Assembly (NCBI GenBank): GCA_937898415.1
Contig: CALDLA010000009.1
Coordinates: forward strand, 4,272 to 68,271
Direction of reading: 5' to 3'
Length of the DNA: 64,000 bases
Source: an uncultured Prevotellaceae bacterium
GTDB lineage: Bacteria; Bacteroidota; Bacteroidia; Bacteroidales; Bacteroidaceae
The stretch's first letter is position 1; every line of letters starts with the position of its first letter. The position numbers were made by a program, and so were the translations under genes. Under the pieces are notes generated by a model. That model searched no databases, was not told the origin of the DNA, and saw nothing but the letters and a program-made list of their open reading frames with translations. Positions 39,556 through 57,597 of the stretch are shown here, piece by piece.

Positions 39556-39562
39556 CAAATTT

Positions 39563-39620
39563 TACGAAGCCTTCCAACACTTTTTTGGAAGCCATGGAAA
39601 AAGTGTTGGATGGCTTCGTA
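39563..39620. repeat. 23-bp-arm inverted repeat after priA (possible terminator, no T-run)
   Basis: TACGAAGCCTTCCAACACTTTTT ... AAAAAGTGTTGGATGGCTTCGTA. The loop TGGAAGCCATGG carries a third GAAGCC copy. Confidence 0.45.
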
Positions 39621-39961
39621 GCAAGAAATGCGTAGGCAAGCACATTGAACCTATTGTTCTTTCTTGGCATAAAATCGCCTTTATTCCGCTATGAAGGGCG
39701 AGAAACTATAAGGTTTAGCGGAATAAGCTTTATTTCATTCCGTTTTTAACACTTTGCAGTGTTGATATTACGATTTTTTTAAACTTTGCAGCACGATTGA
39801 AAACGAAAGCATTGTATATTTGCAGCCAAACAAAACAGGAAAGTATGAGCTTTTTATCAAAAATCTCATTAAAAAACTTAGATTTTTGATGATTTGCTCA
39901 TACTTTTTTTTGGCTGATTGACTTTTTTTCCTTACATTTGCAGCTATATTTGGTAACTGTT

Positions 39962-41054: not shown

Positions 41055-41080
41055 AAGAAGTTTGCACTTGTTTTTTTAAT

Positions 41081-41390
41081 GAACATATGTTCGTTGGCCT
41101 TTTCACATATGTTCATAAGGTTGAGAACCTATGTTGGGCTGAAATCGCGTTTATTAATAAATAGCATGCAAATTATTAATAAGTAGCGTGCTATTTATTA
41201 ATAAATGACGACGAAGTCAAAAATACCCCCCAATAAATTGGCTCGAGCCAAAACCCCATTTAGCTCGAGCCAATGCCCCTTTTGGCTCGAGCCAACTCCC
41301 CGATTGGCTCTTAATGACTTTTCCTGATTTCAAAACCCTGCCTTATTGCGTAATAACCCAAGGTTATTTGACGATAACCCCGGGTTATTT
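41081..41390. repeat. four consecutive triplet arrays of distinct palindromes phased at 21-22 bp
   Basis: ACATATGTTC-type cores at 41083/41105/41127. TTATTAATAA at 41151/41173/41195. TTGGCTCGAGCCAA at 41238/41260(TTAG..)/41282 plus a half-site at 41304. ATAACC-N3-GGTTAT-type at 41332 (degenerate)/41353/41374. Confidence 0.85.
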
Positions 41391-41473
41391 GCTATACGTA
41401 CGTTTTTACGCTCTGGCAGTTAAATTTTTCTTAAATTACGCCCAATTGTACAAGAAGTAAGGATTTTATTTCG

Positions 41474-41481
41474 TATTTTTG
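41474..41481 (+). promoter_or_regulatory. -7 box TATTTTTG upstream of hsdM
   Basis: The sequence is cgTATTTTTGcaaatg, about 210 nt upstream of the hsdM ATG. Confidence 0.4.
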
Positions 41482-41692
41482 CAAATGCTATTGCCCTGCT
41501 GACTCTAAATCTATTTAGTGAGAAGAGTTATCGGGCGAGGGCACTACTTTGTGGAAAAGCGACACTGCACGTATTGTGGCAGCAGGAGATACCCTCGTTT
41601 TTTCTGCTTTGTGGAAACCTAAAACTGTAGAACCCTCTGACGCTTGGGTATCAGTCAGACCAATTGCTGCTGACCACGCTATCCAAGGATAT

Positions 41693-43297
41693 ATGGCAAA
41701 GAAAGTAAAAGAGGAAACGCTGAATCTTGATAACATTCTATTCAAGTGTCGGGATATTCTGCGACAGGCAAAGAACTCAGGGTCGTTTTTCGAAAAGCGC
41801 GACATGATGCTGACACTCGTGTTCCTACGGTTTATTGGTGAGAAATACGAGGATGGTGTTGCAAAGTTGCGCCAGAAGTTGATAGACGAAGGGCTTGACC
41901 CTGATGACGAAGAAATCGTAAAGGCTTTCTTCGAGGATGCCACCTTTGCCGACGGTACTTTCGACCTTCCACCAGAATCGCGTTGGTCCACCATCATCAA
42001 CACGGCAGCACCACAATTGAACGTGGCTCTTGATACAGCTCTCAGAAGTATTGGTGCCACTAATCCTGACTTGAAAGGATGCTTCGTGGAGGGTACGTTC
42101 ACGCAGCGCAATCTGGGTGCCAACGACATCAAGAAGATTGTGGATGAGGTGAACAAGATCAGTCATAAGACTTTTGGCGAAGAAAAAGACCTCATTGGAC
42201 GTGTCTATGAATATTTCCTGAAGGAGTTTGCCGTCAACGCCACCAAAGAAGAGGGTGAGTTCTATACCCCGCACGATGTGGTACAACTGATTGCTACCGT
42301 CATAGAGCCTTTTGACGGTACGCTCTATGACCCCTGTTGCGGTTCGGGCGGAATGTTCATCCAAAGCTCAGAACTGGTAAAAGCCAAGCAGGGCGATATA
42401 AGCCGTATCAATGTGTATGGTCAGGAGAAAGAGGCAGCGACCTATCGACTGGCCAAGATGAACCTTGCACTTCGTGGCATCAGTCATAATCTGGGGAGCG
42501 AGAGCGATTCCTCCTTCACCAACGACCTTCACCGAGGGCTGTATTTCGACTACATCATGGCCAATCCTCCCTTCAACCTCAAAGGCTGGTATAATGACAA
42601 CCTTCAGTATGATAGCCGATGGGCAGACTATCAGACTCCTCCAGAAAGCAATGCCAACTATGCCTGGATTCTTCACATGCTTTCCCATCTGAAGAAAACT
42701 TCAGGTGTGGCAGGCTTCTTGCTGGCCAATGGTGCTCTGGGCGATACCGATGCCCTCGAAATCCGAAAGAAACTGATAGAAAATGATAAGGTGGAAGCCA
42801 TTATCATTCTGCCCAGAGAGCTGTTTATCACCACTGACATCAGCGTCACCTTCTGGATTCTCAATCAGAACAAACGAGGAGGCCGCTATCATGGGCGCGA
42901 GCTTCGCAACCGTGAGCACGAAATTCTCTTCATGGACTTACGCCGCTGGACTGAGAATCCTGTTAAGGGCGAACAAAAGAAAAAGGTGCAACTCGTTACT
43001 GAACAGATTCAGCGAGTAGCCGACCTTTATCATCAATGGCAATCTGTCGGTACAGACGGCAAGAACTTTGCCGAGCCAGAGCTTTATCGCAGCGTAGGGA
43101 TAAAGGAGATAGAGCAAAACAACTGGACGCTGGTTCCCAGCAAATATATTGAGTTTATCGACCACGATTTAGAGATAGACTATCCCAAGGAAATGGCTCG
43201 CATTCAGCAGGAAATGAAGGAGCTGATGACAAGGGAAAAGGAATCACAACGAATGCTTGAAGAGGCGTTTAAAGGTATTGGATATGGGATTGAATAA
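41693..43297 (+). CDS. hsdM: type I restriction-modification system methyltransferase subunit
   Basis: HsdM N-domain (LFKCRDILR...LVFLRFI), motif I DPCCGSGGM and motif IV NPPF. The internal ATG at 41693 (MAKKVKEE...) is preferred over the track start. Confidence 0.93.
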   Translation: MAKKVKEETLNLDNILFKCRDILRQAKNSGSFFEKRDMMLTLVFLRFIGEKYEDGVAKLRQKLIDEGLDPDDEEIVKAFFEDATFADGTFDLPPESRWSTIINTAAPQLNVALDTALRSIGATNPDLKGCFVEGTFTQRNLGANDIKKIVDEVNKISHKTFGEEKDLIGRVYEYFLKEFAVNATKEEGEFYTPHDVVQLIATVIEPFDGTLYDPCCGSGGMFIQSSELVKAKQGDISRINVYGQEKEAATYRLAKMNLALRGISHNLGSESDSSFTNDLHRGLYFDYIMANPPFNLKGWYNDNLQYDSRWADYQTPPESNANYAWILHMLSHLKKTSGVAGFLLANGALGDTDALEIRKKLIENDKVEAIIILPRELFITTDISVTFWILNQNKRGGRYHGRELRNREHEILFMDLRRWTENPVKGEQKKKVQLVTEQIQRVADLYHQWQSVGTDGKNFAEPELYRSVGIKEIEQNNWTLVPSKYIEFIDHDLEIDYPKEMARIQQEMKELMTREKESQRMLEEAFKGIGYGIE

Positions 43298-44399
43298 GTA
43301 TAAACTTGGGGAACTCATCGAATTATCTGATGAGAGGAATTACTCGGGCAAGTATTCGCTTGATAGTGTTAAAGGCATTTCAACAGAGAAAACTTTTATT
43401 GATACAAAAGCAAATATGGACGGTGTATCATTAGATACATATAAAGTTGTTAATCCTGGTGAATTCTCTTATGTTCCAGATACATCAAGAAGAGGAGATA
43501 AAATAGCTTTGGCATTTAACAACTCAAATGTAGCCATTCTTATTTCATCCATCTACACGACATTTAAGTGTAGGCGAAAAGATTTATTAATACCAGAATT
43601 CCTATTTATATTCTTCAACCGCCCTGAGTTTGACCGTTATTCTCGTTTCAATTCATGGGGAAGTGCAAGAGAGACTTTCTCGTGGGAAGATTTCTGTGAT
43701 ATTGACATCACTCTCCCTTCCGTTGAACAGCAGCGCAAATACGTTGACGTTTATCTGTCACTTCAAAAGAACCTTGAAGCATACCAAAGCAAGGTAGATG
43801 AATTAAAACTTGTCTGTGATGGGTACTTGGACAAATTAAAGGCTGAGAGTGGAAGATTGAAAATCGGAGAACTTCTTGAAGAGGTGGACAACAGGAATAA
43901 TGGTTCGAAGATACAATCGGTCAAGGGAATCAATATTGAGAAGAGTTTCATGGACTCTGTTGCTGATACGAATGGCGTTGATTTGTCGAAGTACAAGGTC
44001 GTCAATGAGAATGAATTTGCTTTCAGCGGTATGCAAACAGGAAGAGACGAATGTATAAGGATTGCCCTTAATGAAAGCAAAAATCCCATTATCGTTTCAC
44101 CCGCTTATACAGTCTTGAAGGTTAAGAACGATTCCGTACTGGTTCCGTATATCCAGCTGTGGTTCTCCAGAAAGGAGATTGACCGTTATGGATGGTTTGC
44201 AAGCGATGGGAGCATACGCTCAAATCTGGACTTGGAGCGTTTCTTTGATATGCAAATCCCCATCCCGTCTATTGAGACCCAGCGTTCGATAGCCTCAATA
44301 TACAAAGTCTATAAGGAGCGTAAGGCCATTGCCTCCCAGCTAAAAGAGCAACTAAACAATCTCTGTCCTATACTGATAAAAGGCTCATTACAAAACTAA
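43284..44399 (+). CDS. hsdS: type I R-M specificity subunit (two target-recognition domains)
   Basis: It overlaps the hsdM stop by 14 nt. It has duplicated TRD architecture with central and C-terminal coiled conserved regions. Confidence 0.87.
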   Translation: MGLNKYKLGELIELSDERNYSGKYSLDSVKGISTEKTFIDTKANMDGVSLDTYKVVNPGEFSYVPDTSRRGDKIALAFNNSNVAILISSIYTTFKCRRKDLLIPEFLFIFFNRPEFDRYSRFNSWGSARETFSWEDFCDIDITLPSVEQQRKYVDVYLSLQKNLEAYQSKVDELKLVCDGYLDKLKAESGRLKIGELLEEVDNRNNGSKIQSVKGINIEKSFMDSVADTNGVDLSKYKVVNENEFAFSGMQTGRDECIRIALNESKNPIIVSPAYTVLKVKNDSVLVPYIQLWFSRKEIDRYGWFASDGSIRSNLDLERFFDMQIPIPSIETQRSIASIYKVYKERKAIASQLKEQLNNLCPILIKGSLQN

Positions 44400-44414
44400 A
44401 ATCATTACCAGACA

Positions 44415-46076
44415 ATGGAAGACTATAAAGCCATATTTCAACAGCTCATTACCCATGTAGAGCAGGAGGTGATAGAATACAAGACTGCCGAGAATCAGTA
44501 TGATATGAATAAACTCGGCAAGTATTTCTCTGCATTGAGCAATGAGGCAAATCTGCGTGATGTGGAGTTCGCATGGATTGTGCTGGGCGTGAATAACGAC
44601 CGTAAGGCCGTAGGCACACAATTCCTGATGGACGAGACCAAACGGCAACTTATGAAACATGATATTGCTGTCAACACCACAGGAGGTCTGACCTTCCGAG
44701 AGATAGTTCCCATCGATGTAGAAGGGAAACGGGTGCTGATGTTCAAGATACCAGCTGCGCCAAGGAATATTGTCACCAAGTGGAAGGGCATAGCATACGG
44801 GCGAAGCGGAGAAAGCTTAGAGCCATTGTCGCAAGACAAATATGACGCCATTCGCAACCAGCGTCCTGTGGATGACTGGTCTGCACACGTGGTTGAAGGA
44901 GCAACCATCAAGGATGATCTTGACGAACTGGCGCTGGCCAAAGCTCGCATCATGTTCAAGAAAGTGTATGATGACAAGCCGGCCGAAATGGTGGACGGAT
45001 GGTCTCAGGAAGAGTTTTTAAGGCATAGCGGGATGCTGAATGACGGAAAACTGACACGTGGCGCACTCCTTCTATTAGGAAAGCCAGAGGTGGCCTATAA
45101 GCTTTCGCCCGCTGTTCCTCAGATTACGTGGACACTGGTAAACGAGGAAGGCCGTAAGATAAACTATCAGCACTTCTCTATACCCTATATACTGACCGTT
45201 GATGAGGTGTTGGGCAAAATTCGCAACCTTACCATGCGGGAGATGCCTGGAGGCACACTGTTCCCTGACAAACTTATGCAGTATGATGACTTCATTATAC
45301 GCGAGGTGCTACATAACGCCATAGCACATCAGGACTATACGCTCTGTCAGAGAATAAACTTCATCGAGGGGTCGGACTATCTGTACTATTCAAATGCAGG
45401 CACCTTCTTCCCAGGCACGTTGGAGAATGCTCTTGACTCGCTAAAACAACAGAAGTTCTACAGGAATGACTGTCTTTGCAAAGGTATGGTGAGTTTCAAT
45501 ATGATTGACACAATAAGCAGTGGTATTCAGACGATGTTCTTCAAGCAGAAAGAGCGTCATTTCCCAATGCCTGACTATGAAATCAATGAGAACGTCCCAG
45601 AGGTAAACGTGAAGATATATGGTCGCGTCATCGATGAAAACTATGTTGAATTATTGAAGAGAGACAACTCGCTGTCGCTTAAAGAATGTATTTGGCTCGA
45701 TGCAATTCAGAAAAAGCGTCCAATAACTGATGATGCGCTGAGGATACTGAAAAGCAAAAAACTCATAGAATGGCACAAGCCTCATTATATCATATCGCGG
45801 GCTGTTGCCCAAAAGACTCACCAAGTTCCTGAATATACCAAGCAGAAGGGGCTGGATAAGAACAAACTGCTAAACATGTTGCAGCAATGCGTGGAAAATG
45901 CTGGTGATACAGGGATTATGCTTAAAGATATATATGAGTATATGCAAGTGACACTGCCATCAGGCAAATCGATTGATGCCAAAAAGAAAACGCTCAGTTA
46001 TTTGCTTCAGTGTCTTAAAGAATCGGGGCATATTTATTCCGAAAGACTAAAATGGAAAGCTTTAAAAAATAATTAG
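44415..46076 (+). CDS. AlbA_2/Schlafen-like DNA-binding domain protein with C-terminal ATPase-like and wHTH-like regions
   Basis: N-terminal ...EYKTAENQYDMNKLGKYFSALSNEANL...AWIVLGV... resembles AlbA_2 ('divergent AAA') domains, and the middle has ...REVLHNAIAHQDY.... It is embedded between hsdS and hsdR. Confidence 0.7.
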   Translation: MEDYKAIFQQLITHVEQEVIEYKTAENQYDMNKLGKYFSALSNEANLRDVEFAWIVLGVNNDRKAVGTQFLMDETKRQLMKHDIAVNTTGGLTFREIVPIDVEGKRVLMFKIPAAPRNIVTKWKGIAYGRSGESLEPLSQDKYDAIRNQRPVDDWSAHVVEGATIKDDLDELALAKARIMFKKVYDDKPAEMVDGWSQEEFLRHSGMLNDGKLTRGALLLLGKPEVAYKLSPAVPQITWTLVNEEGRKINYQHFSIPYILTVDEVLGKIRNLTMREMPGGTLFPDKLMQYDDFIIREVLHNAIAHQDYTLCQRINFIEGSDYLYYSNAGTFFPGTLENALDSLKQQKFYRNDCLCKGMVSFNMIDTISSGIQTMFFKQKERHFPMPDYEINENVPEVNVKIYGRVIDENYVELLKRDNSLSLKECIWLDAIQKKRPITDDALRILKSKKLIEWHKPHYIISRAVAQKTHQVPEYTKQKGLDKNKLLNMLQQCVENAGDTGIMLKDIYEYMQVTLPSGKSIDAKKKTLSYLLQCLKESGHIYSERLKWKALKNN

Positions 46077-46186
46077 TCAGTTTTTAGTTAGTTTTTAGTT
46101 AGTTTTTAGTTAGTTTTTAGTTGGTTTTTAGTTGGTTTTTAGGTCGATTTGGCTCGATTTAGTTAATTTTTAGTTAGATTTTAGAT
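46075..46186. repeat. about 10 tandem copies of an 11-bp unit (AGTTAGTTTTT and variants) ending 3 nt before the hsdR ATG
   Basis: agtcagttttt, agttagttttt x3, agttggttttt x2, aggtcgattt, ggctcgattt, agttaattttt, agttagatttt. Confidence 0.9.
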
Positions 46187-46188
46187 AT

Positions 46189-49100
46189 ATGGCGAGAAAC
46201 CTAAACAACATCAATGGCCGCTTCGTGGAGAGTGACTACGAGAATGCGCTCATCTCTTTCTTGGAGAAAGAAGAATGGGAGTATCTCTTTGGTGATAATA
46301 TTTCAAGAGCCGACAAGAAGGAAGTCCTGAATATGGATGACCTCGTTAATTTCTTGAAGGACAACAATAAAGAGAAAGGCTTGGATGATGAAGAAATCCG
46401 TCAGATTGCCGATAAAGTCAGACTTGTAGGAGCCGACACCGACTTTGCCACATTGCATGAGGTCTATAAATGGATGGTGGATGGCATATCATTTACCTCG
46501 AAGAAAGGCATAACTTATACCATCAGTTTAATTGACTTTGGTAAATGGGACAATAACATCTTCAGGGTAGTCAATCAGTTCAGCGTTGAGTACATTAACA
46601 ATGGAGAGAAGAAAACACGTCGCCCCGATGTGTTACTCTATGTGAATGGCTTGCCTGTTTGTGTCATAGAACTGAAGAATCCAGCTGATGCCAATGCCAC
46701 GATAGAGGACGCTTGGGAGCAAATCAACATACGTTATTGGCGCGACATTCCCCACCTGCTGCATTATTGTCCGCTGGCCTGCATCAGCGATGGGGTGAAG
46801 ACACGCTTAGGCACGGTGCGTACACCCTATGAGCATTTCTATGCCTGGCGAAGAGTAGAGAATGAGGATAAAGTCTCTACTATGCCTTTCGAGGAACTGG
46901 AAACGATGGTAAGAGGCGTTTATCGTCCGGAGCGTTTCTTGGAGATATTCAGGGACTATGTCTATTTCCAAGACGAGAAATATGATAGTGACGAGAAGGA
47001 AATAGTGTGTCGCTATCCGCAATTCTTCGCCACACGATTACTGCGCGAGAGCATCATCGGCTCAGTAAAGACCAAGAGCGGGAAGGGTGGAACCTATTTC
47101 GGCGCTACGGGCTGCGGCAAGACATATACTATGGCTTTTCTGGCCCGTCAGCTATCCATGCGGTGTGCGGCAGAGATAGGTTCGCCAACCATCCTGATGA
47201 TAGTTGACCGCGAGGATCTGCAGAAGCAGGGGGCAAAGCTATTCACCAAGAGCGAAGAGTATCTTGGTCTTGGTGTTGTAGAAACGGTGCCTACCAGAAA
47301 GAAATTGCGCGAAGAACTTGGTGCCCGAGAGAGTGGCGGTTTCTTCATCTGCACGATACAGAAGTTCTGCGACAGGAAGAATGACCCAATAGGTCTTATC
47401 AATGAGCGTTCCAATATCATTTGTTTCAGCGATGAAGCTCACCGCACACAGATAGAAGGCTCGAAGCGTATCAAGTTCAGCGACGATGCCGACGAGAACA
47501 TGAAGGCCATGATTTCCAAGCCATACGCCAAAGTGTTGCGCGAGGCCCTCCCTAATGCTACGTTTGTTGGTTTCACGGGTACGCCCATTGCCGAGACCTA
47601 TCAGACCTTTGGCGATGAGATAGACCGCTACACGATGGACCAGGCTGTGGCCGACGAGATTACCGTCCCCATCAAATATCATCCTCGCATAGCCAAGGTG
47701 CTGCTCAATCAAGAGAAGGTGAAGGAGATAGAGGCTTACTATGCACAATGCGCTGAGGAGGGCTCGACCAAAGAGGATATAGAAAAGAGCAAGAAGGCCA
47801 TGAGTTCGTTAGAGGAAATTTTAGGTCAGTCCGACCGTCTTGAAAAGTTGGCCGTTGATATTCACGACCACTATGTGGCTGCTGTTGCCAAAGATCCAGA
47901 CAGGGTGCAAAAAGCCATGATTGTCTGTTCCAAGAGAGAAATAGCATATAATCTGCTGATGAAGTTCAAGGAACACTATTCAGAATGGTTCGTTGAGCGT
48001 AAAACACCAGAAGGTGTGGAAGTTTCTGAGGAAGAGCTGAAGAAACTGAAGCTGATGCCAACGATTGCTATGGTGGCCAGTGTTGCCAGCAACGATGCCC
48101 CGGATATGTATAACTATCTAGGCGGTGTGAAGAATGACAAGCGGACAGAAGATTTGGATGCAGCTTACAAGCAGGAACATTCAAACTTCCGTATTGTCAT
48201 TGTTGTGGATATGTGGATTACCGGCTTTGATGTGGACTGTCTCACCTATATCTATAATGACAAACCGCTGCAAAAGCATACTCTTATCCAAACCATCAGT
48301 CGCGCCAACCGGAAATATCCAGGGAAGAAATACGGTCTGATTGTCGACTACATTGGTATTCGTGACCAGCTGTTGGAAGCAAGGAAAATATACGGAGGAG
48401 ACAATTCTGTAGCACTTACGGCAGATGATGTGGCGCAAGCTACAGGCATCTTCCGTGAACACCTGCAGATACTCATGATGCTGTTTAAGGATTATGACCT
48501 CACTCCTTTCCTGGATGTTGAAACTGATCCCGGACAGAGATACATCCTTTTAGCAAAGGCAGCAGAGTATGTGTTTGCATCAACAAAGGTGTTGAATTCT
48601 GAAAGCAAGGATGGCAAGAAGGCCAAGAAAGTCTCGTTCAAGACCTACTTCCTGAAAGAGGTGAAGAGAATGAGGAAAGCATATGACCTGTGTCAGCCAT
48701 CGGGTGAGTTGGAGGAAGAAGAAGAGGCATTGGCTCAGTGCTTCATGGCCATAGCCGGAATGGTTTATAAGATGAACGGAACGGATGCCCCAGACACTGA
48801 GACCATGAACCGCCGTGTGGCAAAAATGGTGGAGGAAGCGCTGAAATATAATAACGTTGAGAGTATTCTCGAAGACGGCGAAGAGATGGATATCTTTGGG
48901 CCAGAGTTCGTAGAGAGACTACATGATATTAAGATGCCCGCTTCAGGGCTGGAAATGCTCGTCAAGATGCTCCGTCAAAAGATTACGGAATACGGCAGAA
49001 CCAATCAAGTGGCATCAAAGAAATTTCAGGAAATGCTTGAGGCCACCATTAAACAGTATCATGACAGGCGCAAGTTCCTGTCTGAGCAGGAAGCTGGTGC

Positions 49101-49800
49101 TGCACAAGAGGCAACGGCAGAAAGCATCATCAAGGAGGCAACAGAGCAGGCTCTGGAAATACTGAAGAGGATGCAGGCCGACAAAGAAAGTTTCCGCAAG
49201 TTGGGCCTGACTTTTGAAGAGAAAGCCTTCTATGACATTCTGATTCACCTGAGAGACCAATACAACTTCGAGTATGGTGAGGACAAGGAGGTAGATGGGG
49301 TTGTCGTGAATGAGAAATGTAAGAGTCTGGCCAAGAAGATCCGTGTCATCATTGATGCCAAGTCATCCTTTGCCGACTGGCTTAACAACAAGAACATTCG
49401 CAACCAGCTCAAACAAGACATCAAGATATGTCTTGTGAAAAACAAGTATCCACCACAGTATACTCCAGAAGTTTTCCGTGAAGTAATGGTTCAAGTGGAG
49501 AACTTCAAGGAGAATGAGGATGTGATAGTTCGCAGGTTGGAGAATGTTGAAGATGACCGCGAAGTTCGCAATCTTATCTATCAGCGTCTACAGATGGATG
49601 TTGCCACAACTGATGCTGTTTTACAGCGTGAAGTGATGGAGACATATGGCGAACGCTATCCTAATATGGAGCCTAATGATTGGAGGCACGTCATTGAAGC
49701 ATACACTCCGATGGTAAGAGAAGCGGCTAAGCCAAAAGCGAAGAAAATATCTATGCCGCAGTATGAAAAGGCTGCGGGAGGTGACGACTATGACAATTAA
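46189..49800 (+). CDS. hsdR: type I restriction enzyme endonuclease/translocase subunit
   Basis: 1203 aa with a nuclease N-domain (RPDVLLYVNGLPVCVIELK), SF2 motifs (GATGCGKT, DEAHR, TGTP) and a long C-terminal extension. Confidence 0.93.
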   Translation: MARNLNNINGRFVESDYENALISFLEKEEWEYLFGDNISRADKKEVLNMDDLVNFLKDNNKEKGLDDEEIRQIADKVRLVGADTDFATLHEVYKWMVDGISFTSKKGITYTISLIDFGKWDNNIFRVVNQFSVEYINNGEKKTRRPDVLLYVNGLPVCVIELKNPADANATIEDAWEQINIRYWRDIPHLLHYCPLACISDGVKTRLGTVRTPYEHFYAWRRVENEDKVSTMPFEELETMVRGVYRPERFLEIFRDYVYFQDEKYDSDEKEIVCRYPQFFATRLLRESIIGSVKTKSGKGGTYFGATGCGKTYTMAFLARQLSMRCAAEIGSPTILMIVDREDLQKQGAKLFTKSEEYLGLGVVETVPTRKKLREELGARESGGFFICTIQKFCDRKNDPIGLINERSNIICFSDEAHRTQIEGSKRIKFSDDADENMKAMISKPYAKVLREALPNATFVGFTGTPIAETYQTFGDEIDRYTMDQAVADEITVPIKYHPRIAKVLLNQEKVKEIEAYYAQCAEEGSTKEDIEKSKKAMSSLEEILGQSDRLEKLAVDIHDHYVAAVAKDPDRVQKAMIVCSKREIAYNLLMKFKEHYSEWFVERKTPEGVEVSEEELKKLKLMPTIAMVASVASNDAPDMYNYLGGVKNDKRTEDLDAAYKQEHSNFRIVIVVDMWITGFDVDCLTYIYNDKPLQKHTLIQTISRANRKYPGKKYGLIVDYIGIRDQLLEARKIYGGDNSVALTADDVAQATGIFREHLQILMMLFKDYDLTPFLDVETDPGQRYILLAKAAEYVFASTKVLNSESKDGKKAKKVSFKTYFLKEVKRMRKAYDLCQPSGELEEEEEALAQCFMAIAGMVYKMNGTDAPDTETMNRRVAKMVEEALKYNNVESILEDGEEMDIFGPEFVERLHDIKMPASGLEMLVKMLRQKITEYGRTNQVASKKFQEMLEATIKQYHDRRKFLSEQEAGAAQEATAESIIKEATEQALEILKRMQADKESFRKLGLTFEEKAFYDILIHLRDQYNFEYGEDKEVDGVVVNEKCKSLAKKIRVIIDAKSSFADWLNNKNIRNQLKQDIKICLVKNKYPPQYTPEVFREVMVQVENFKENEDVIVRRLENVEDDREVRNLIYQRLQMDVATTDAVLQREVMETYGERYPNMEPNDWRHVIEAYTPMVREAAKPKAKKISMPQYEKAAGGDDYDN

Positions 49801-49854
49801 CACAAAATAATGAAAGCTATTTTGTCACTCCTTTTAGTAGGCTCCAAAAAACGG

Positions 49855-49919
49855 CACTCGAGTCAAATCATCGCTTGAGTCGAGTCAGATGATGAATTGA
49901 CTCGAGTGAATGTTTTTTT
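49855..49919 (+). terminator. long compound hairpin + T7 run after hsdR
   Basis: CACTCGAGTCAA-ATCATC-loop(GCTTGAGTCGAGTCA)-GATGAT-gaa-TTGACTCGAGTG followed by aatgTTTTTTT. Confidence 0.65.
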
Positions 49920-49989
49920 AAGCCATGTTTTAAGTCATTAATCATCAAGGCTAATTTCATATCGGCCGTCGTCTCTGCATCCACAACTT

Positions 49990-50115
49990 AAATATAGAGT
50001 CATCAAATGTTACAGAATGTTATGGAGTCGGAAAAATCTGCTATCTGCTGGAACTCATCAAGGCACACTATGAGACGTATGTTCTTCTTTTGAGCAATCT
50101 TCTGTGGCAGTTGAA
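49990..50115 (-). pseudogene. remnant of an ATPase Walker-B region
   Basis: The minus-strand frame reads ...VDYDNLQLPQKIAQKKNIRLIVCLDEFQQIADFSDSITFCNI*. This is an isolated fragment with no start codon. Confidence 0.4.
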
Positions 50116-50351
50116 GATTATCATAATCTACAGCATTTGTATGCTGCAAAGTTATGTATTTTTTTTATTAGTAACAAACTTCTTACTAATTTTTTAATGA
50201 CTTTTATAGAATCAATACCCGCCGAGACCTTGTTGAGATTGGTCGTACCATCGTTATTGACAATTCATAAGGTTCTTCTGCCATTTTGTTGAACACTTGT
50301 AAACAATTCGGATAAAGTTCTTATTTTCATCTGAAGATACCCTCAAACTGT

Positions 50352-50407
50352 TGAGTCGACTCATTCGATCAAATGAGTCGACTCGTTCGATCGAATGAGT
50401 CGACTCA
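50352..50407. repeat. three TGAGTCGACTC(A) palindromes phased at exactly 22 bp
   Basis: Copies start at 50352, 50374 and 50396. The spacers are TTCGATCAAA, TTCGATCGAA, then ACGCTTCGAACGAG. Confidence 0.88.
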
Positions 50408-50539
50408 ACGCTTCGAACGAGTTAATTAATGGAAAACTTGCCTTTTGTGTTAAAAAGACATAGGAAACGGCAGAATATAATATATTTTATTTTGCCGATT
50501 GCTATACTTTTACTATCTTTGCGGCAAAATTAGACAATT

Positions 50540-50878
50540 ATGAGTACTGTCATTGGAAGAAAAAAGAAATAGAAGTCTTCCATTTCCGCATGGAATATAA
50601 AGGGTGATGAAACGAGGGCTGGTGCGCAAGTGGATCTGCTTATTATCAGGGCTGACAACATCGTCAACCTCTGCGAGATGAAATTCTGCGACTCACCTTA
50701 TTCTATTGATAAGGAAGAAGAGACAAAGATGCTTCATCGGGAAAATTTGCTAAAGGAGACGCTTTCTTCTAAACAAAAAGTGCATCTGACATTGATAACT
50801 ACTTATGGACTTGTGCAAGGTAAGCATAGCGGAAAAGTTCAGAGGGTTGTTACGTGCGATGACTTATTCAAGAAATGA
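50540..50878 (+). pseudogene. second decayed paralog of the 39962..41054 ATPase (N-terminal stub + C-terminal 82 aa)
   Basis: TATCTTTG box, then ATG..MSTVIGRKKK*. The C-terminal ORF DLLIIRADNIVNLCEMKF...VVTCDDLFKK parallels QIDLLIDRADRIINLCEMKF...EVTMDDLFGK of the first copy. Confidence 0.6.
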
Positions 50879-50998
50879 AATCACCTCTATCAGTATAAGT
50901 CACGTTGAGGGGGAATCGTAAGAAAGTTTCCGTAAAATTTGGAGGTATCAAAAATAATTCCTATTTTTGCACCAAAAAGAGCAAAACATTATAGGATT

Positions 50999-51268
50999 AT
51001 GCCAGAAGTATTCAGATTTTTTGGTTTTTCTTTCTTCTTTTACAGCAGGGAGCATGAACCACCACACATTCATGTGGAAGGCAATGGTGGTATGGCAAAA
51101 TTCGACTGGGACGGAGAGGAATTCGTGCAAGTTGAAAAAACTGGGATAAAAGCCAACGACTTTAAGAAGATCAAGAAGATGGTTGATGACAACTTAAGCG
51201 TTGGAAAGAGTATTTTGACAAAGACAAAAGGGAGGACTGAACATGAAGATCACGAAGATTTGGTTTGA
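50999..51268 (+). CDS. DUF4160-family protein
   Basis: MPEVFRFFGFSFFFYSREHEPPHIHVEG is the family hallmark. A TATTTTTG box lies about 30 nt upstream. It overlaps the next gene by 26 nt. Confidence 0.72.
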   Translation: MPEVFRFFGFSFFFYSREHEPPHIHVEGNGGMAKFDWDGEEFVQVEKTGIKANDFKKIKKMVDDNLSVGKSILTKTKGRTEHEDHEDLV

Positions 51269-51644
51269 TGCCGACTATATTTATGGCAAGGACGAAAAAG
51301 AAAAGGAGTACAAGCAATCATTGCTATGGTATCCAAAGTTGCGTGATGCCTCTGACGATGTACGCAGTAAATACACCTTCGGAATGGGCGGTATCCATTG
51401 GCGCGACCTTGATGAGGACATAAGTTTTGAGAGCTTCGAGTACGAGGATGCCGAACCGAGCGCTTTGCAGCGTTTCTTCTTGACACACAAAGAAATCAAC
51501 ATAGCAGAGTTTGCCCGTTCAATGGGCTTAAACCCTACGTTGCTCCGAAATTACATAAATGGCTTCAAAAAGCCTTCGAAAGAACGTGAAGAGGAAATCA
51601 TTTCCCGTATTCACAAATTGGGTGAAGAGATGTTGGCTGCTTAA
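51243..51644 (+). CDS. DUF2442-like domain fused to a C-terminal HTH (XRE-like) segment
   Basis: N-terminal KITKIWFDADYIYG...GIHWRDLDEDISFESF and C-terminal INIAEFARSMGLNPTLLRNYINGFKKPS. Confidence 0.65.
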   Translation: MKITKIWFDADYIYGKDEKEKEYKQSLLWYPKLRDASDDVRSKYTFGMGGIHWRDLDEDISFESFEYEDAEPSALQRFFLTHKEINIAEFARSMGLNPTLLRNYINGFKKPSKEREEEIISRIHKLGEEMLAA

Positions 51645-51659
51645 ATACCAGATTAGTAT

Positions 51660-52358
51660 ATGGATGCAAAAAGAATACTGGGCTATCTGCGCCAGATTAT
51701 GGCGAACAACAACCGCGAATGGTTCCATGCCAACCATCAGGAGTATGAGGCAGTGCGGGCTGAGTGGGAGCGGGGTGTGCAGCAGGCCATCGGACGTATC
51801 ATCACCTTCGATCCCACGGTGGCTACACAGACAGTGAAGGACTGTACTTATCGCTTCAATCGCGATACACGTTTCTCGACAGACAAGTCTCCCTACAAGA
51901 ATCACTTCGGAGCCTACATCAATGCACACGGCAAGAAGGCGCTGCGCGGCGGCTATTACCTGCACATGGAGCCCGACAGCTGTCTGCTGGCCGTCGGCAA
52001 CTACTGGCTGCCAACGAATATCCTCACGGCTTGTCGTAATGAGCTGATGGCTAACGAGGAGCAGTGGCTGCGCTGCGTCGATACGCCAGCGTTCAAGAAG
52101 CTTTTCGCTGACGACGGCAACGCTACGTGGGAAAGTGCGCAGGGCTTCGGCATGTCGAAACTGAAGACCAGCCCGTCAGGCTTCCCACGTGACTATGCCT
52201 ACGTGAACTTCCTCCGGCTGAAGGACTACTGCGCCTGGCATCGCTTCGATAATGATTTCTTCGAGGGCGATGCCTGGCTCGATGAGATGGAACACGTCTT
52301 CCGAACAGCCAAGCCCATGATGGACTTTATGAACGCCGTTATCGATGACTACGAATAG
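51660..52358 (+). CDS. DUF2461 (TIGR02453)-family protein
   Basis: NNREWFHANHQEYE...YRFNRDTRFSTDKSPYKNHFGAYI...GGYYLHMEP. Confidence 0.78.
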   Translation: MDAKRILGYLRQIMANNNREWFHANHQEYEAVRAEWERGVQQAIGRIITFDPTVATQTVKDCTYRFNRDTRFSTDKSPYKNHFGAYINAHGKKALRGGYYLHMEPDSCLLAVGNYWLPTNILTACRNELMANEEQWLRCVDTPAFKKLFADDGNATWESAQGFGMSKLKTSPSGFPRDYAYVNFLRLKDYCAWHRFDNDFFEGDAWLDEMEHVFRTAKPMMDFMNAVIDDYE

Positions 52359-52395: not shown

Positions 52396-55300
52396 ATGAA
52401 GAAACTATTATTGTTGTTAGCGTGTGCTTTCCTTGGATTAGTGGCACAGGCAGAGAAAGTGACAGAGCGAGAGGCTCTGCAGAAAGCCCAGCAGTTTATG
52501 CAGGGCAAGGTATTCAAGCATAGCGGCATGAGGAAGCGTGCTCCGCAGAAGGATAGAGGCAGTGCGGGCTACTATGTTTTTAATGCTGAGAACAACGGCG
52601 GCTTTGTCATTGTGGCAGGCGATAACCGCCTGAAGGACATTCTCGGTTATTCCGAGAGTGGCAGCTTCAGCATGGATCAACTGCCTGACAACGTGAAGTG
52701 GCTGCTGGACTACTACGACGAGATTGCCAATGCACCTTCCGATGGTGCCCAGCATCTCAGCGCCCCTGCTTCAGCCAGCAGGCCGGAGGTGCAGCCGCTG
52801 GTTACGACGAAATGGGATCAGTGGGCTCCTTACAACAATCACTGCCCCGTAGTGAATGGACAGAAGTCTCCTACGGGCTGTGTGGCCACGGCAATGGCAC
52901 AGGTCATCAACTACTTCCAGTGGCCTATCAACGAGGTGAGGTCGGTAGCAGACTATACATCGAATACGGAGCAGGTCTATATGCCAGAACTTCCTGCCCG
53001 TAAGATTGGATGGTACAGCATGACTGACGACGAAATCGCCTGGCTGATGCGCTATTGTGGCCAGGCCGTCACGATGGACTACATGCCCATCGAGTCGGGA
53101 GCCCGTGCCATCGATATTGCCGGTGCCCTGATATCGGTCTTCAACTACAGCAAGACGACCACGCTTGTAGGCCGCAGCTCCTATTCCGATGCTGAATGGG
53201 AGGAGTTGATCTACAACGAACTGACTGTGGGACGCCCTGTGATCTACAGTGGTGACGCGGGAAACGGCTTGTCGGGCCACTCCTTCGTCCTACATGGCTA
53301 TAAGGACGGCCTGTTCTGTGTGAACTGGGGCTGGAGCGGACAGTGTGACGGCTATTTCGCCTTGACCAACCTGAGTCCCAACGACATGCAGCACTACACG
53401 GAAAACCAGAATGCCATCATCGCAATCCAGCCTGCATCTAACAACAATGACGATGCTATAGATGCTGCTTTCGAGCGTACCATTCAACTTGACAAGGCTG
53501 GCACGCTGGCCGACATGATTCCTGAGAAGGAACGTGGCAGTATCAAGAAACTCACCATCGCTGGCAACCTGAATGGTGACGACATCTATGTGATTCGAGA
53601 AATGGCGAATTCCAGCTTGCAGACGCTCGACATGAAGGATGCCAGGATTGTGAAGGGTGGAAAGGCGTACTACAGGAGCTATACAACTGAGGATGATGTG
53701 GTGGGCGAGAACATGTTCTCTGGGTGCCAAGCCCTGCAGACGCTCATCCTTCCCTCCAGCATCAAGTCCTACAAGTTAGGTGCCTTTTCTAGTACCGACT
53801 TGCGTTCTTTCGTCGTGCCGAAGACCGTCACCAGCATAGGCCGAGGCCTCTTCACGGGATGCAAGAACCTGGGGGCTATAGAGGTGGAGGAGGACAACCC
53901 CACCTACTACTCGCCTGCCGGCAGCAATGCCATCATCGAGCGTGCCACGAACACGCTCATTGCCGGCTGTCCTGCTACCGTCATCCCTGAGGGCGTGACC
54001 ACGATAGCAACCTTTTCTCTCTCCACGAACATTCTCGGCATAACGTTGCCTGAGAGCCTGACAACCATCGAGCCAAATGCTTTTGAGGGCGCACCGCTGA
54101 AATACCTGCATATTCCCAAGAATGTCACGTCGATAGGAATGGCAGCATTCAGCGTTGCTCTTTTGCAAGGCATTTCGGTGGATAGCGAAAACACCGTCTA
54201 TGATAGCAGGAATAACTGTAACTGTTTGATTGAGACGGCCACGAACACCGTCCTGATGGGCAGTGCCGGTTCTGAAATTCCAGAAGGCATTGAGGCCATC
54301 GGCGATGCGGCGTTTCGTTACAACGATATAAGAACTGTCACACTGCCACAGTCGCTGAAGCACATAGGCAAGTTGGCCTTTGAAGGTATCTGGTTGCGTT
54401 ATCTGGAGATTCCCTCCAATGTCACCACCATTGGCAGCTCTGCTTTTGGCTTCTTCAAGCCGAAGGTGTGCCGGGTAAAGTGTCAGACGCCGCCCACCAT
54501 TGATGCCACCACCTTTAACCAGGTTTCGCCGGAAGCCAGGCTGATAGTGCCTGACGGTACGAAGGCTCTGTATCAGGATGCAACGGGATGGAATGCTTTC
54601 TCCACCATATTGGAGGAGTCGGAACTCCAGTCATCACGTACGTTGCATGTGGCTACTGCCGGGAGCCTGTCGACACTCATCCCTGAGGACGAGATTGACA
54701 ACATTGAGAGTCTGACGCTGACGGGGCAGCTCAATGCCGATGACCTCCGCTTTATCAAATACAATTTGTGTGGAGTCAATCAGCATGGCATCTTGCGCCT
54801 CCTCGACATGACCAATGCAAGAATAGAGAATGATGCCATCGGCCAAGATGGATTGGCTGGCGCCATCACGCTGGAGGAGATTAAGCTTCCCAACACCTTG
54901 AAGTCTATTGGCAAGAGTGCATTCATGAATTCGGGCATCAAGAAGATTGTTATTCCCAAGTCTGTCACTAAGCTGGACTTCGAAATCTTCTATCAATGCC
55001 ATAGCCTGGCATCCATCAGTGTTGAGGCCGGCAACCCTGTGTTCGACTCTCGTGAGGACTGCAATGCCATCATCGAGACCTCTACCAATATCCTGCTCAT
55101 TGGCTGCCGCTCCACCATGGTGCCGGCCAGTGTGGTGGGCCTTGGCAGATCTTCCTTCAGTGGTGTGAGAGGTCTGACCAGCCTCGACCTGCCCGATGGT
55201 GTGAGGAGCATTGACAATTCCGCTTTCTGGGCCGACGAGGGCCTGACCTCCGTCAGGCTTTCCAAGAGCATCGTCGAGCTGGGTACAGGCCCGTTTGTAG

Positions 55301-57597
55301 GCTGTTCGAATATTTCGTCGCTTGTCATCGATCCTGAGAATCCTGTCTATGACTCGCGAAATAATTGCAACGCCATTATCGAGACGGCCACCAACACGCT
55401 GATTCAGGGCTTCGGCACGACAAAGATTCCTGAGGACGTGGTGAAGATTGCGCCTCTGGCTTTCCAGTATCAGTCTTTGGCCTATATCGAAATACCTGCC
55501 GGTATAAAGGAGTTGGGCGAGTCCTGCTTCCGCTTCTGCAACAACCTCACCACTGTGGTCAGCTACATCAAGAAGCCGTTCCCCGTCAGTTCCACGGTAT
55601 TCAGCGGCTCAAACATGGAGACGGCTGTGCTCTATGTCCCCTTCGGCACAAAGAACGCCTATGCTGCCACTTCTGGCTGGGGTTCCTTCCCGAAGATTAT
55701 CGAGATGGATCCTACCGATGATGAGCTTGGACAGTATGCCGCCAGCGTGGCTGTATCCGACTTCGGCACGCATTATGCCGGACTGAACACGCTGGTCGAC
55801 GTGCCCGTCTACATGGTGGGTGGCAGCATCGACCCCATCACCAACATCGACTATACTATTACCACCGGCGACAACGTCTATCAGGGGCATATCGACATCT
55901 CGCCCCTCTCCTATATGATGACGGCACAGGTGCTCATACCTTTCCCTGCCGATGCCACCGTTGGCGAGAAAGTGAAGACGCTGACCATCACCAAGGTGAA
56001 CGGGGTGGATAACGAGGCGACCGAGAAGACAGCCACCGGTACGCTGGTCACCGTGAAGCGCAAGCCCAAGTTCGTGCCGCTGGTCGAGGAGGCTACTGGC
56101 ACCTGGTGCGGATGGTGCCCCCGTGGTGCCACTGGCCTGAAACTGCTCAACAAGACCTTCCACGATGACGTCGTTACCGTTGCTGTGCATAGCAACGACC
56201 TCATGGAACTGCCCGGCTACAGCGTCAATGCCACCAGCTTCCCCAGTTGCCAGATCAACCGTGTCGAGGTGGTCGACCCCTACTATGGTTCCAGCATCCT
56301 TCCCTTTGGCATCAAGCTCGATGTCGAGAATGCCATGCGTCAATATACCATTGGCGAGATAGCGGTGGATGCCCAGTGGGCCGATGACAGCAAGACGGCC
56401 ATCAAGGTCAGTACCACCACTACCTTCGTTGAGGACGTCGCCTCGTCGCCCTATCAGATTGGCTACCTGCTGCTTGAGGATAAGCAGACAGGCTGGAGTC
56501 AGAAGAACTACTTCTCGGGCAGCACCATCAACGACCCCAACCTCAAGCCGTTGGTAGACAGCCCCAGTGTGATGCAGGACGTGAAGTATGACCATGTTCC
56601 CGTGGCCACTTGGCAGCACGACACCGGCGTTGTAGGCTCACTGCCTGCCACCATCACCAGCGAGGTGCCCATGAACTATACCTACACGCTCGACATCACG
56701 GGCAACACACGCATCCAGAACAAGGATCAGCTGGTCGTCGTGGCACTGCTACTCAACAAGGACACCAAGGAGCTCGTCAACTGTGCGAAGTTCAAGTTCA
56801 CGCCAGATCCCGATCCCTCAGTGATCACCGCACAAAATTACAGTCGCCTCTATGGCGATGCCAACCCCGCCTTTGAATATACTGTCGAAGGCGGAGACCT
56901 CGAGGGAACGCCAGTCATCAGCTGTGAGGCTACGGCCAACTCGCCCGTAGGCACCTATCCCATCGTCGTGAGCCAAGGCACCGTCAGCAACGAAGAGGTC
57001 ACCTATGTGGAAGGCACCCTCACCATCGAGCCTGCTCCCCTCACCATCAGTGCTGGCACCTACACCAAACGCGAAGGCGACCCGCTGCCTGAGTTCACCC
57101 TCACCTATCAGGGCTTCAAGAACAATGAGACCAGTGCCGTGCTGACACGCCAGCCTGTTGTCACCAGCGAGGCCACCGCCAGCAGCGCCCCCGGCGAATA
57201 TCCCGTCACCGTAGGCGGAGCGGAAGCCCAGAACTATGCCATCAGCTATGTCGACGGCAAGCTCATCATCACCGAGTTGCCCAGCTACACCCTGACCTAT
57301 CTCATCGACGACACCCCCTACAAGACCAGTCTCGTCAAGGAGGGCACCCCCATCACGCCAGAGCCCGCCCCGCAGGGCGACTACGTCAGCTTCGTGTGGG
57401 AAGGTGAGCCTGCCGTGATGCCTGACCACGACGTCACCGTGATAGCCGTTTACGCAACGGGAATCACTGAGGTGATGATGGTGCAGCAAGGGAAAGTACG
57501 CATCTACACGCCTGATGGTAAGCGGATTGGCAAGTTACAGAAGGGTATGAACATCCTCGTAATGCCTGATGGCACCACGAGGAAGATATGGAAGTAA
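52396..57597 (+). CDS. 1733-aa mosaic: Spi/I69 propeptide + C10 cysteine peptidase + BspA-type leucine-rich repeats + Omp28/thioredoxin-like module + MBG repeats + T9SS-CTD-like end
   Basis: GFVIVAGDNRLKDILGYSESG (propeptide). C10 Cys motif SPTGCVATAMAQVINYFQWP and His motif GHSFVLHGY...NWGWSG. Many IPxxVTxIGxxAF LRR units. EEATGTWCGWCPRG. YGDANPAFEYTVEGGDLEG-type MBG repeats. C-terminal ...KVRIYTPDGKRIGKLQKGMNILVMPDGTTRKIWK. Confidence 0.82.
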   Translation: MKKLLLLLACAFLGLVAQAEKVTEREALQKAQQFMQGKVFKHSGMRKRAPQKDRGSAGYYVFNAENNGGFVIVAGDNRLKDILGYSESGSFSMDQLPDNVKWLLDYYDEIANAPSDGAQHLSAPASASRPEVQPLVTTKWDQWAPYNNHCPVVNGQKSPTGCVATAMAQVINYFQWPINEVRSVADYTSNTEQVYMPELPARKIGWYSMTDDEIAWLMRYCGQAVTMDYMPIESGARAIDIAGALISVFNYSKTTTLVGRSSYSDAEWEELIYNELTVGRPVIYSGDAGNGLSGHSFVLHGYKDGLFCVNWGWSGQCDGYFALTNLSPNDMQHYTENQNAIIAIQPASNNNDDAIDAAFERTIQLDKAGTLADMIPEKERGSIKKLTIAGNLNGDDIYVIREMANSSLQTLDMKDARIVKGGKAYYRSYTTEDDVVGENMFSGCQALQTLILPSSIKSYKLGAFSSTDLRSFVVPKTVTSIGRGLFTGCKNLGAIEVEEDNPTYYSPAGSNAIIERATNTLIAGCPATVIPEGVTTIATFSLSTNILGITLPESLTTIEPNAFEGAPLKYLHIPKNVTSIGMAAFSVALLQGISVDSENTVYDSRNNCNCLIETATNTVLMGSAGSEIPEGIEAIGDAAFRYNDIRTVTLPQSLKHIGKLAFEGIWLRYLEIPSNVTTIGSSAFGFFKPKVCRVKCQTPPTIDATTFNQVSPEARLIVPDGTKALYQDATGWNAFSTILEESELQSSRTLHVATAGSLSTLIPEDEIDNIESLTLTGQLNADDLRFIKYNLCGVNQHGILRLLDMTNARIENDAIGQDGLAGAITLEEIKLPNTLKSIGKSAFMNSGIKKIVIPKSVTKLDFEIFYQCHSLASISVEAGNPVFDSREDCNAIIETSTNILLIGCRSTMVPASVVGLGRSSFSGVRGLTSLDLPDGVRSIDNSAFWADEGLTSVRLSKSIVELGTGPFVGCSNISSLVIDPENPVYDSRNNCNAIIETATNTLIQGFGTTKIPEDVVKIAPLAFQYQSLAYIEIPAGIKELGESCFRFCNNLTTVVSYIKKPFPVSSTVFSGSNMETAVLYVPFGTKNAYAATSGWGSFPKIIEMDPTDDELGQYAASVAVSDFGTHYAGLNTLVDVPVYMVGGSIDPITNIDYTITTGDNVYQGHIDISPLSYMMTAQVLIPFPADATVGEKVKTLTITKVNGVDNEATEKTATGTLVTVKRKPKFVPLVEEATGTWCGWCPRGATGLKLLNKTFHDDVVTVAVHSNDLMELPGYSVNATSFPSCQINRVEVVDPYYGSSILPFGIKLDVENAMRQYTIGEIAVDAQWADDSKTAIKVSTTTTFVEDVASSPYQIGYLLLEDKQTGWSQKNYFSGSTINDPNLKPLVDSPSVMQDVKYDHVPVATWQHDTGVVGSLPATITSEVPMNYTYTLDITGNTRIQNKDQLVVVALLLNKDTKELVNCAKFKFTPDPDPSVITAQNYSRLYGDANPAFEYTVEGGDLEGTPVISCEATANSPVGTYPIVVSQGTVSNEEVTYVEGTLTIEPAPLTISAGTYTKREGDPLPEFTLTYQGFKNNETSAVLTRQPVVTSEATASSAPGEYPVTVGGAEAQNYAISYVDGKLIITELPSYTLTYLIDDTPYKTSLVKEGTPITPEPAPQGDYVSFVWEGEPAVMPDHDVTVIAVYATGITEVMMVQQGKVRIYTPDGKRIGKLQKGMNILVMPDGTTRKIWK

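Follow-up and report, generated by a model that had tools for sequence, protein, structure and literature searches.

A 22-bp-phased palindrome triplet beside a type I restriction-modification operon in a Prevotellaceae genome as the probable core of a truncated, ISL3-type miniature element

The locus and its phased palindromes

The window, that is, the whole stretch of 64,000 nucleotides analysed here, derives from the genome of an uncultured Prevotellaceae bacterium (G000; draft assembly of 4.76 Mb in 184 contigs, 51% GC, 99.95% complete, with Bacteroidota-type promoters), and the sequencing runs that contain this organism are of bovine gut. It carries, in this order, priA (37279–39555), a decayed ATPase gene, a stack of dispersed repeats, a type I restriction-modification (R-M) operon, a palindrome array referred to as T-type, and ATPase remnants around a further palindrome array referred to as R; past the R region follow a DUF4160/DUF2442 gene pair, a DUF2461 gene, and the gene of a 1733-aa surface protease. 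The operon is a cargo of 44.6% GC between flanks of 54.7% GC. The T-type array, whose closest copy is C7:46982–47051 (86%), stands directly 3′ of the hsdR stop codon with a T-run after it, and the R array lies approximately 550 bp downstream of hsdR, separated from it by a terminator-like array and a gene remnant (Table 1).

Table 1. Positions, strands, and supporting evidence of the repeat modules and the cargo in the window
Feature	Positions	Strand	Basis or copies
Left stack, 22-bp-phased dispersed modules	41095–41395	.	repeat detection and genome copy counts
GAACATATGTTC boxes	41095–41150		approximately 11 places in the genome
TTATTAATAA array (TTATTAATAAATAGCATGCAAA, period 22, at 41151–41206)	41151–41216		approximately 23 places in the genome
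GGCTCGAGCC "L" array (TTGGCTCGAGCCAA)	41238–41310		approximately 24 places in the genome
ATAACCC..GGGTTAT module	41332–41395		approximately 19 places in the genome
Cargo: type I R-M operon (hsdM, hsdS, AlbA_2/Schlafen-like gene, hsdR)	41549–49800	+	Pfam
Degenerate T-type array (GACTCGAGTC-type cores, 22-bp phase)	49845–49915	.	match to a combined TCGA-core triple pattern
R left terminal inverted repeat (GGTTCTTCTGCCATTTTGTTGAA)	50272–50294	+	21/23 bases as in the terminal repeats of an ISL3-family insertion sequence (L250:131–2113)
R leader (ACTTGTAAACAATTCGGATAAAG...GATACCCTCAAACT)	50295–50348	+	approximately 90–95% conserved in 14 copies; ends in CCCTC and an A-run
R triplet, three 22-bp units	50349–50411	.	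Tandem Repeats Finder, shuffles, hairpin prediction, copy alignment
R tail start with a degenerate fourth half-unit (CGAGTTAATT)	50412–50435	+	truncation point of the window copy

Further features were observed next to R. Two remnants of AAA-type "ATP-binding protein" genes flank it, one on either side (49938–50300 on the minus strand and 50541–50878 on the plus strand); the right one keeps a Bacteroidota-type promoter (TTTG..TAtcTTTG, approximately 50495–50522) and a start codon, and it runs into a stop after 10 codons. A small stem-loop with a T-run (TTAGTAACAAACTTCTTACTAATTTTTT) is located at 50166–50196.

The earlier note on this DNA had reported a palindromic word in exact 22-bp phase to the right of the operon, and this triplet is real: TGAGTCGACTC starts at 50352, 50374, and 50396 on the plus strand, in a stretch (50340–50430) that reads CCCTCAAACTGTTGAGTCGACTCATTCGATCAAATGAGTCGACTCGTTCGATCGAATGAGTCGACTCAACGCTTCGAACGAG, with the spacers ATTCGATCAAA and GTTCGATCGAA between the copies. 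Tandem Repeats Finder reports a period of 22, 2.5 copies, and 91% matches, and the 11-mer TGAGTCGACTC with at most one mismatch is found 10 times in the window against 1.37 expected, a count reached by none of 100 shuffles. The core given as TTGAGTCGACTCAA needs correction, as no single copy is spelled so; the first copy reads TTGAGTCGACTCAT, the middle one ATGAGTCGACTCGT, and the third one ATGAGTCGACTCAA. Each R unit is composed of a 12-bp palindrome, TGAGTCGACTCA, and a 10-bp quasi-palindromic spacer, repeated three times at 22 bp; because the spacers are near-palindromic themselves (TTCGATCGAA), the entire array from 50350 to 50409 is a single near-perfect palindrome of 60 bp. This palindrome is predicted to fold as one hairpin, with an RNA energy of −45.2 kcal/mol (z −7.2) for the plus strand and −50.5 kcal/mol (z −9.2) for the minus strand, and the DNA fold is predicted likewise.

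The shape that the triplet was said to have in common with the left array TTGGCTCGAGCCAA (41238–41295) is likewise real. Half-site-like words do occur at 46141–46160, as had been proposed; they belong to an 11-bp tandem array (46073–46184; TTAGTTAGTTT, approximately 10 copies, between the AlbA_2-like gene and hsdR) that occurs once in the 4.76-Mb genome and is unrelated to the dispersed 22-bp families, and it was therefore dropped as a family member.

The R element and its ISL3-type ends

The triplet is the core of R, a dispersed, non-coding element of approximately 225 bp with no open reading frame. Fourteen copies are present on 14 contigs of the genome, aligning over approximately 190–225 bp at 90–95% identity; triplets of GAGTCGACTC at 22-bp spacing are found in 14 places, and those of GGCTCGAGCC in approximately 24. 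A full copy is composed of a 23-bp terminal inverted repeat (TIR; GGTTCTTCTGCAATTTAGTTGAA), a leader of approximately 55 bp, three 22-bp units, a tail of approximately 75 bp, and a second TIR, and inverted pairs of GGTTCTTCTGCAATTTAGTTGAA approximately 202 bp apart bound R and T copies on contigs C6, C10, C33, C88, C176, C69, and C172. In the other R copies, approximately 75 bp more of tail (GGAAATATACTTGGTGTGATATTGTCAAGATTTCTGACGAAATTTCAAC...) lead to the right terminal repeat. Past 50435, the window copy instead enters the promoter of the decayed ATPase gene, and thus its last 75 bp or so and its right terminal repeat have been lost.

The array is far more uniform than the remainder of the element. 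There are exactly three units in 13 of the 14 copies and two units in one. The 39 repeats of the three-unit copies show no change at all in the 10-mer core, whereas leader and tail differ by 5–10%; such divergence next to invariant cores requires gene conversion or selection, neither of which would be expected of a relic that is wholly passive. Within the arrays of these 13 copies, variation is limited to four pair positions of the inner spacers, of which one is compensatory (G-C to A-T through G-T) and the others are mostly mismatched, so that covariation is weak. When spacer 1 was set against the reverse complement of spacer 2 in 52 arrays, the quasi-palindromic nature of the spacers themselves confounded the comparison. 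Judged from these alignments, invariant cores together with varying spacers would fit a constraint on a hairpin and a constraint on protein binding equally, and the pattern does not separate the two.

The predicted fold raises the alternative of action at the RNA level, in which the transcribed 60-nt hairpin would serve as a bidirectional terminator, as a target of RNase, or as a stabiliser, shielding host genes from island transcription. The great stability predicted for both strands speaks for such a role, as do the T-type array and T-run right after the hsdR stop codon, the intergenic position of every R, T, L, and TTATTAATAA array, and a related array carried by a rumen metatranscriptome contig. 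However, the flanking genes are tandem, convergent, or divergent alike with no rule of orientation or preference for gene ends, no T-run follows the R array, the L and T arrays are not global hairpins, and only the one compensatory pair was seen. Moreover, no Rfam family is matched, since a scan of 39500–52000 returned only sub-threshold, microRNA-like matches on the hairpins. The RNA runs contain too little of this organism for transcription across the array to be seen. Altogether, action at the RNA level is considered quite unlikely.

The origin of R is indicated by its ends. Those of R and T match both ends of a full insertion sequence (IS) of the ISL3 family in a Prevotellaceae metagenome-assembled genome (L250:131–2113) at 92–96% over 24–26 bp; its inverted ends are 1.98 kb apart, and its 570-aa product has DDE_Tnp_ISL3 and Zn_ribbon_ISL3 domains. 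In a further locus (L257), inverted copies of the end enclose, 1.96 kb apart, the same transposase family split into two open reading frames. The subterminal IS motif ATTGTCAACATTTCAGACG is also common to R, T, and the IS. With one genome per species, more than 112 loci were found to carry the end motif; most belong to Prevotellaceae and Bacteroidaceae of the ruminant gut, and the motif often stands at the end of a contig. It adjoins this ISL3 transposase in 19 loci and other 22-bp palindrome arrays in five (ACATATGT, ACTCGAGT, CCTTAAGG). A full IS copy of 82% identity was also noticed in a bin labelled Spirochaetia (L216), suggesting either horizontal spread or a binning error.

As R has the ends of the IS and shares its subterminal motif, it is an ISL3-family element's MITE (miniature inverted-repeat transposable element); it is short, non-coding, multi-copy, and dispersed, with TIRs that match those of an IS. 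The window copy is truncated, having one of the two ends, and the element is an orphan in its genome, in which neither tblastn with the L250 transposase nor a PF01610 search finds an ISL3 transposase. The T arrays constitute a sister family with the ends of R, whose three palindromes, TGACTCGAGTCA, are the R half-sites swapped, and on contig C30, T and R are fused inside one pair of ends. Several observations speak against the MITE reading. The 8-bp target-site duplication expected for ISL3 is absent around the full copies on C6, C10, C33, C176, C172, and C69, and direct repeats do not flank the L250 IS either. The likeness of R to the IS is confined to the terminal 23–26 bp and the subterminal motif, whereas the leader and the palindrome array have no counterpart inside the IS, so that the arrival of the array between such ends is not accounted for.

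Among published elements, the closest to R is BrickBuilt of Porphyromonas gingivalis, which has a leader, a 23-nt minisatellite, a tail, and IS5-like ends in 19 copies (Klein et al. 2015, PMC4596501). Both are elements of Bacteroidota that are found in one species or close kin, in about 14–19 intergenic copies of which many are partial, and both have the plan of a leader, 22–23-bp tandem units, a tail, and short TIRs matching an IS, with no clean target-site duplications. The units of BrickBuilt, however, vary in number from 1 to 22.8 (PMC4596501), whereas those of R are fixed at three, of 22 bp, each with a 12-bp perfect palindrome; likewise, R has ISL3-type ends, lacks a transposase partner in its own genome, and is linked to the borders of defence islands, and no sequence similarity between the two was seen. 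The fixed perfect-palindrome triplet, the ISL3-type ends, the missing resident transposase, and the defence-island linkage set R apart from BrickBuilt.

The 22-bp lattice and its distribution

When the whole genome was scanned for 8-bp palindromes with three copies at one fixed spacing of 14–33 bp, 81 arrays were obtained, all of which have a period of 22; every other period in that range yielded zero. By core, the arrays number 21 for GCTCGAGC, 19 for TATTAATA, 15 for ACTCGAGT, 13 for AGTCGACT, 8 for ATGCGCAT, 4 for ACATATGT, and 1 for ATTGCAAT, and most arrays of the genome have exactly three copies. R is thus one of at least seven palindrome families on a 22-bp lattice; the ATGCGCAT core is a further triplet family of this genome, and ATTGCAAT occurs as single arrays.

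The left and right arrays, which had been held to be related, do share a leader shape (CCCNC and an A-run), a 12-bp TCGA-centred palindrome, the 22-bp phase, and three copies. The leader ending is common to R, T, and L, and the cores of the three differ from one another by paired, symmetric substitutions under which the dyad is preserved (TGAGTC|GACTCA, TGACTC|GAGTCA, and TGGCTC|GAGCCA). The L and TTATTAATAA arrays lack recognisable terminal repeats, which speaks against the MITE reading.

Within the genus, the arrays are rare. Forty relatives, 24 species of the genus among them, lack the R element, and TCGA-type triple arrays are found in 4 of 151 species, with 50 in the genome of the window and 10, 2, and 2 in the others. 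A genome of the same genus (G067) was observed to have approximately 10 arrays of CACTCGAGTCCTAAAGCCCTAA units in 22-bp phase, i.e., another family of the same architecture. Y1 (RAYT-like) transposases, on the other hand, are present in 84 of the 151 species against the 4 with arrays, which bears on an origin of the arrays as REP, BIME, or REPIN repeats, which RAYT (Y1) transposases mobilise. There is a likeness in the short intergenic palindromes, the mosaics of module types, and the possible hairpins, but the arrays lack a GTAG or CGTC tag. The genome has two RAYT-like Y1 genes of approximately 270–280 aa with a C-terminal extension (C157:136–1057, L067; C32:41885–42794, L066), and these are flanked by inverted hairpins of their own, GATCAYGGGGWCGGTTCT..TGATC or AATCA.GGGGACAGGTTTTTGATTC, which also occur as approximately 15 REPIN-like doublets elsewhere in the genome. 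A REP/RAYT origin was therefore rejected, given that the RAYT genes have different hairpins and that there is no co-distribution over the 151 genomes. An L array was observed 80 bp upstream of the RAYT-like gene on C157.

Outside the genus, the R core paired at the same phase (GAGTCGACTC-N12-GAGTCGACTC) was found at 49 loci in approximately 17 genomes, which by bin label include other Prevotellaceae, Bacteroidales, Vescimonas (Bacillota), Myxococcales, Polyangiales, and Acidobacteriota; the spacers of the Vescimonas-labelled bin are nearly those of R. The everted core GACTCGAGTC at 22-bp phase occurs at 22 loci, in contrast to 4 loci for a control palindrome, GTGTCGACAC, of equal composition and with a GTCGAC centre. 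Such recurrence in unrelated phyla, far above the control, hints at sequence-specific recognition and speaks against the MITE reading. Viral contigs gave no match to the R-core pattern. In metagenomes, the triple pattern occurs at 58 loci and is of two kinds, i.e., arrays of gut and rumen with three units and W3-YRATSR-W3 spacers, and arrays of high-GC soil with four or more direct repeats. Multi-copy 22-bp arrays with GGACTCGAGTCC or GACTCGAGTC cores were also noticed in bins labelled Streptococcaceae and Thiotrichaceae (L075–L080, L071, L078); in the Streptococcaceae-labelled bin, the palindrome centre drifts (GGACTGGTGTCC) and the outer GGAC..GTCC is kept.

These regularities bear on an alternative in which the triplet is a platform for protein: three dimers, or paralogues for each palindrome type, would occupy one helix face every 22 bp as an architectural or insulating complex at island borders, the MITE ends having served only to spread one platform of this kind. 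In its favour are the strict 22-bp phase and three copies across 81 arrays of seven sequence types with no other period, cores that stay invariant while their flanks drift, the paired changes by which the R, T, and L cores keep their dyad, and the occurrence of core and phase in other phyla at more than 10 times the rate of the control palindrome. However, invariance and symmetric changes are equally expected for hairpins, seven palindromes would require several proteins, and the presence of arrays in only 4 of 151 species is more in keeping with a mobile element than with a conserved host protein. Moreover, a recurring neighbour gene was sought three times beside the arrays and none was found, the only repeated finds being surface proteins, orthologous ROK kinases, and repeat-spanning open reading frames. 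A protein platform as the primary nature of the triplet is thus regarded as unlikely.

Defence islands, strain differences, and the role of the arrays

The earlier note had further proposed that related sites bracket the R-M cassette. The perception is correct and extends genome-wide: an L array lies within 20 kb of 11 of the 14 R arrays, against 1.95 on average and at most 8 in 2000 random placements, and four R arrays are less than 1 kb from an L array. Similarly, 4 of the 14 R loci have a T array within 1 kb, and at 7 of the 24 L loci a TTATTAATAA array lies within 300 bp, where 0.05 such loci would be expected. The order of sides is regular, in that TTATTAATAA and L take one side and T, R, or both take the opposite one, C146 being the exception; the orientation of R relative to L is either. 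At seven loci, 3.6–16 kb of DNA of 37–45% GC lies between R and L, with flanks of 51–55% GC at six of them and low flanks of 43% at C50. Defence or toxin genes are present in the cargo at all six annotated loci (the C10 cargo being left out), namely, type I R-M in the window; type III R-M, SNF2 helicase, RhuM, Fic, and HipA on C50; a pair of AAA_21 ATPases on C69; AbiH and a caspase-domain protein on C172; AbiEii, a protein kinase, and a radical-SAM enzyme on C68; and DarT with kinases on C176. Four further loci (C6, C30, C100, and C146) are without cargo, and their array types are 160–340 bp apart.

Accordingly, the part of the proposal that stands is that two array types flank variable DNA across the genome, and the tie to this R-M operon in particular does not. 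The earlier note had itself named genome-wide commonness of the motif as part of what would refute it; with 14 R and 24 L arrays beside unrelated neighbours in every orientation, that reading fails by this measure. The same applies to the idea that the triplet controls the type I R-M operon or downstream genes, as an operator or another kind of control site. It does resemble a tripartite operator, in which three 14-bp dyads are approximately 22 bp apart, and it is near the operon; nevertheless, the 14 near-identical copies beside unrelated genes already contradict such a role, the array lies downstream of hsdR past the terminator-like array and a gene remnant, and there is no adjacent regulator gene. 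An operator function is therefore extremely improbable.

The cassette differs between strains. In a bovine-gut metagenome run (X1), 41418–50148 has essentially zero depth with approximately 28× on both flanks, and one contig of this run joins 50169–50294 to 50880–51024 with no mismatch; the contig is thus without the R leader, array, tail stub, and ATPase remnant, and its junction is the exact boundary of terminal repeat and leader. The sequence that precedes 50169 in this contig is DNA of contig C160 in the genome of the window, so that either X1 is rearranged there or the contig comes from a paralogous locus. In another run (X7), the T-type array is present at 49844–49908 with one mismatch, and the DNA to its left differs from hsdR. 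From this comparison, the R-M cassette is polymorphic between strains; the X1 and X7 contigs break in repeats, so that any alternative cargo is not readable from these runs. The breakpoints on the right-hand side (49844, 50169, and 50294/50295) lie within repeat modules or at their borders; none is inside the R palindromes, which counts against the MITE reading. In seven genomes of the same genus, priA is more than 18 kb from the DUF2461 gene, so no empty site is readable by synteny; an exact-protein look-up of the DUF2461 gene returned the same strain only, and the donor of hsdR is not traceable, as its closest relatives are at most 77% identical and in other genera.

An ordered frame of this kind could also be read as the work of a dedicated system, of site-specific recombination or of transposition, by which defence cassettes are inserted between L and R as its ends or attachment sites. 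The frame TTATTAATAA-L ... T-R around different cargo at seven loci, and empty at four, is in agreement with this idea, and so is the start of the window cargo: on C30, the L linker (..TTTTCCTGATGATTTCACT) continues directly into the MITE terminal repeat, and the window cargo starts at the linker point equivalent to that junction. However, scanning 30 proteins in or beside the annotated islands revealed no integrase, resolvase, or transposase, the orientation of R relative to L varies, and the breakpoints in strains are off the array cores. Moreover, the L and R cores differ, so a single recombinase could not pair them. The suggestion of the earlier note that a recombination system brackets the cassette is not sustained either, in that the R array sits inside a MITE with ISL3-type TIRs and no recombinase is found among the scanned proteins. 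Attachment sites of this sort are hence very unlikely.

Very large surface or secreted proteins were often observed to adjoin the array stacks, for instance, in the window (52396–57597, with C10 protease and LRR domains by Pfam), on C50 (16819–24234), and on C172 (14181–17321, homologous to the window gene by BLAST). Array-flanking genes of a similar kind in other Bacteroidales metagenome-assembled genomes have T9SS C-terminal domains by Pfam. The neighbours of BrickBuilt also include many PorSS-CTD genes (PMC4596501). The association may be only a common residence in variable regions.

Taken together, the triplet is best read, with a probability of roughly 0.7, as the core of a 3′-truncated, orphan, ISL3-derived MITE whose core would form a hairpin and which shares its stacks with related repeats at island-turnover hot spots. 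Under the MITE reading, the R copies would now be immobile relics or would have come with imported DNA, and they would be tolerated between genes. The arrays would act passively, through hairpin- or cruciform-forming DNA and dispersed homology, at which insertion, deletion, and RecA-type exchange of island DNA may occur; they may incidentally block read-through transcription, and the R-M genes would probably not be regulated by them. Comparable sites exist in Neisseria, in which Correia/NIME repeats and "minimal mobile element" sites accumulate as small TIR repeats in intergenic DNA, and homologous recombination swaps variable gene cassettes there. Unlike the Correia repeats, the present arrays bear phased palindrome triplets, and the exchange is here only inferred.

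A bolder and doubtful proposal is that the 22-bp triplets are a widespread, undescribed functional DNA module that marks and holds open the docking frames (TTATTAATAA-L and T-R) for defence-island swapping, in which case they might be sites for an architectural or recombination-promoting protein or portable homology arms of rumen Bacteroidales, with the ISL3 ends as one vehicle of several.

If only the conservative reading holds, R would be another bacterial MITE that is useful for annotation in rumen Prevotellaceae, where it would explain contig breaks and false "operators" beside defence genes. The finding would matter more in view of the strict 22-bp, three-copy plan that is common to seven families in one genome and recurs in distant phyla. 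At the same time, the ordered pairing of arrays around low-GC defence islands suggests that defence systems may be gained and lost by a simple, repeat-based route without integrases.
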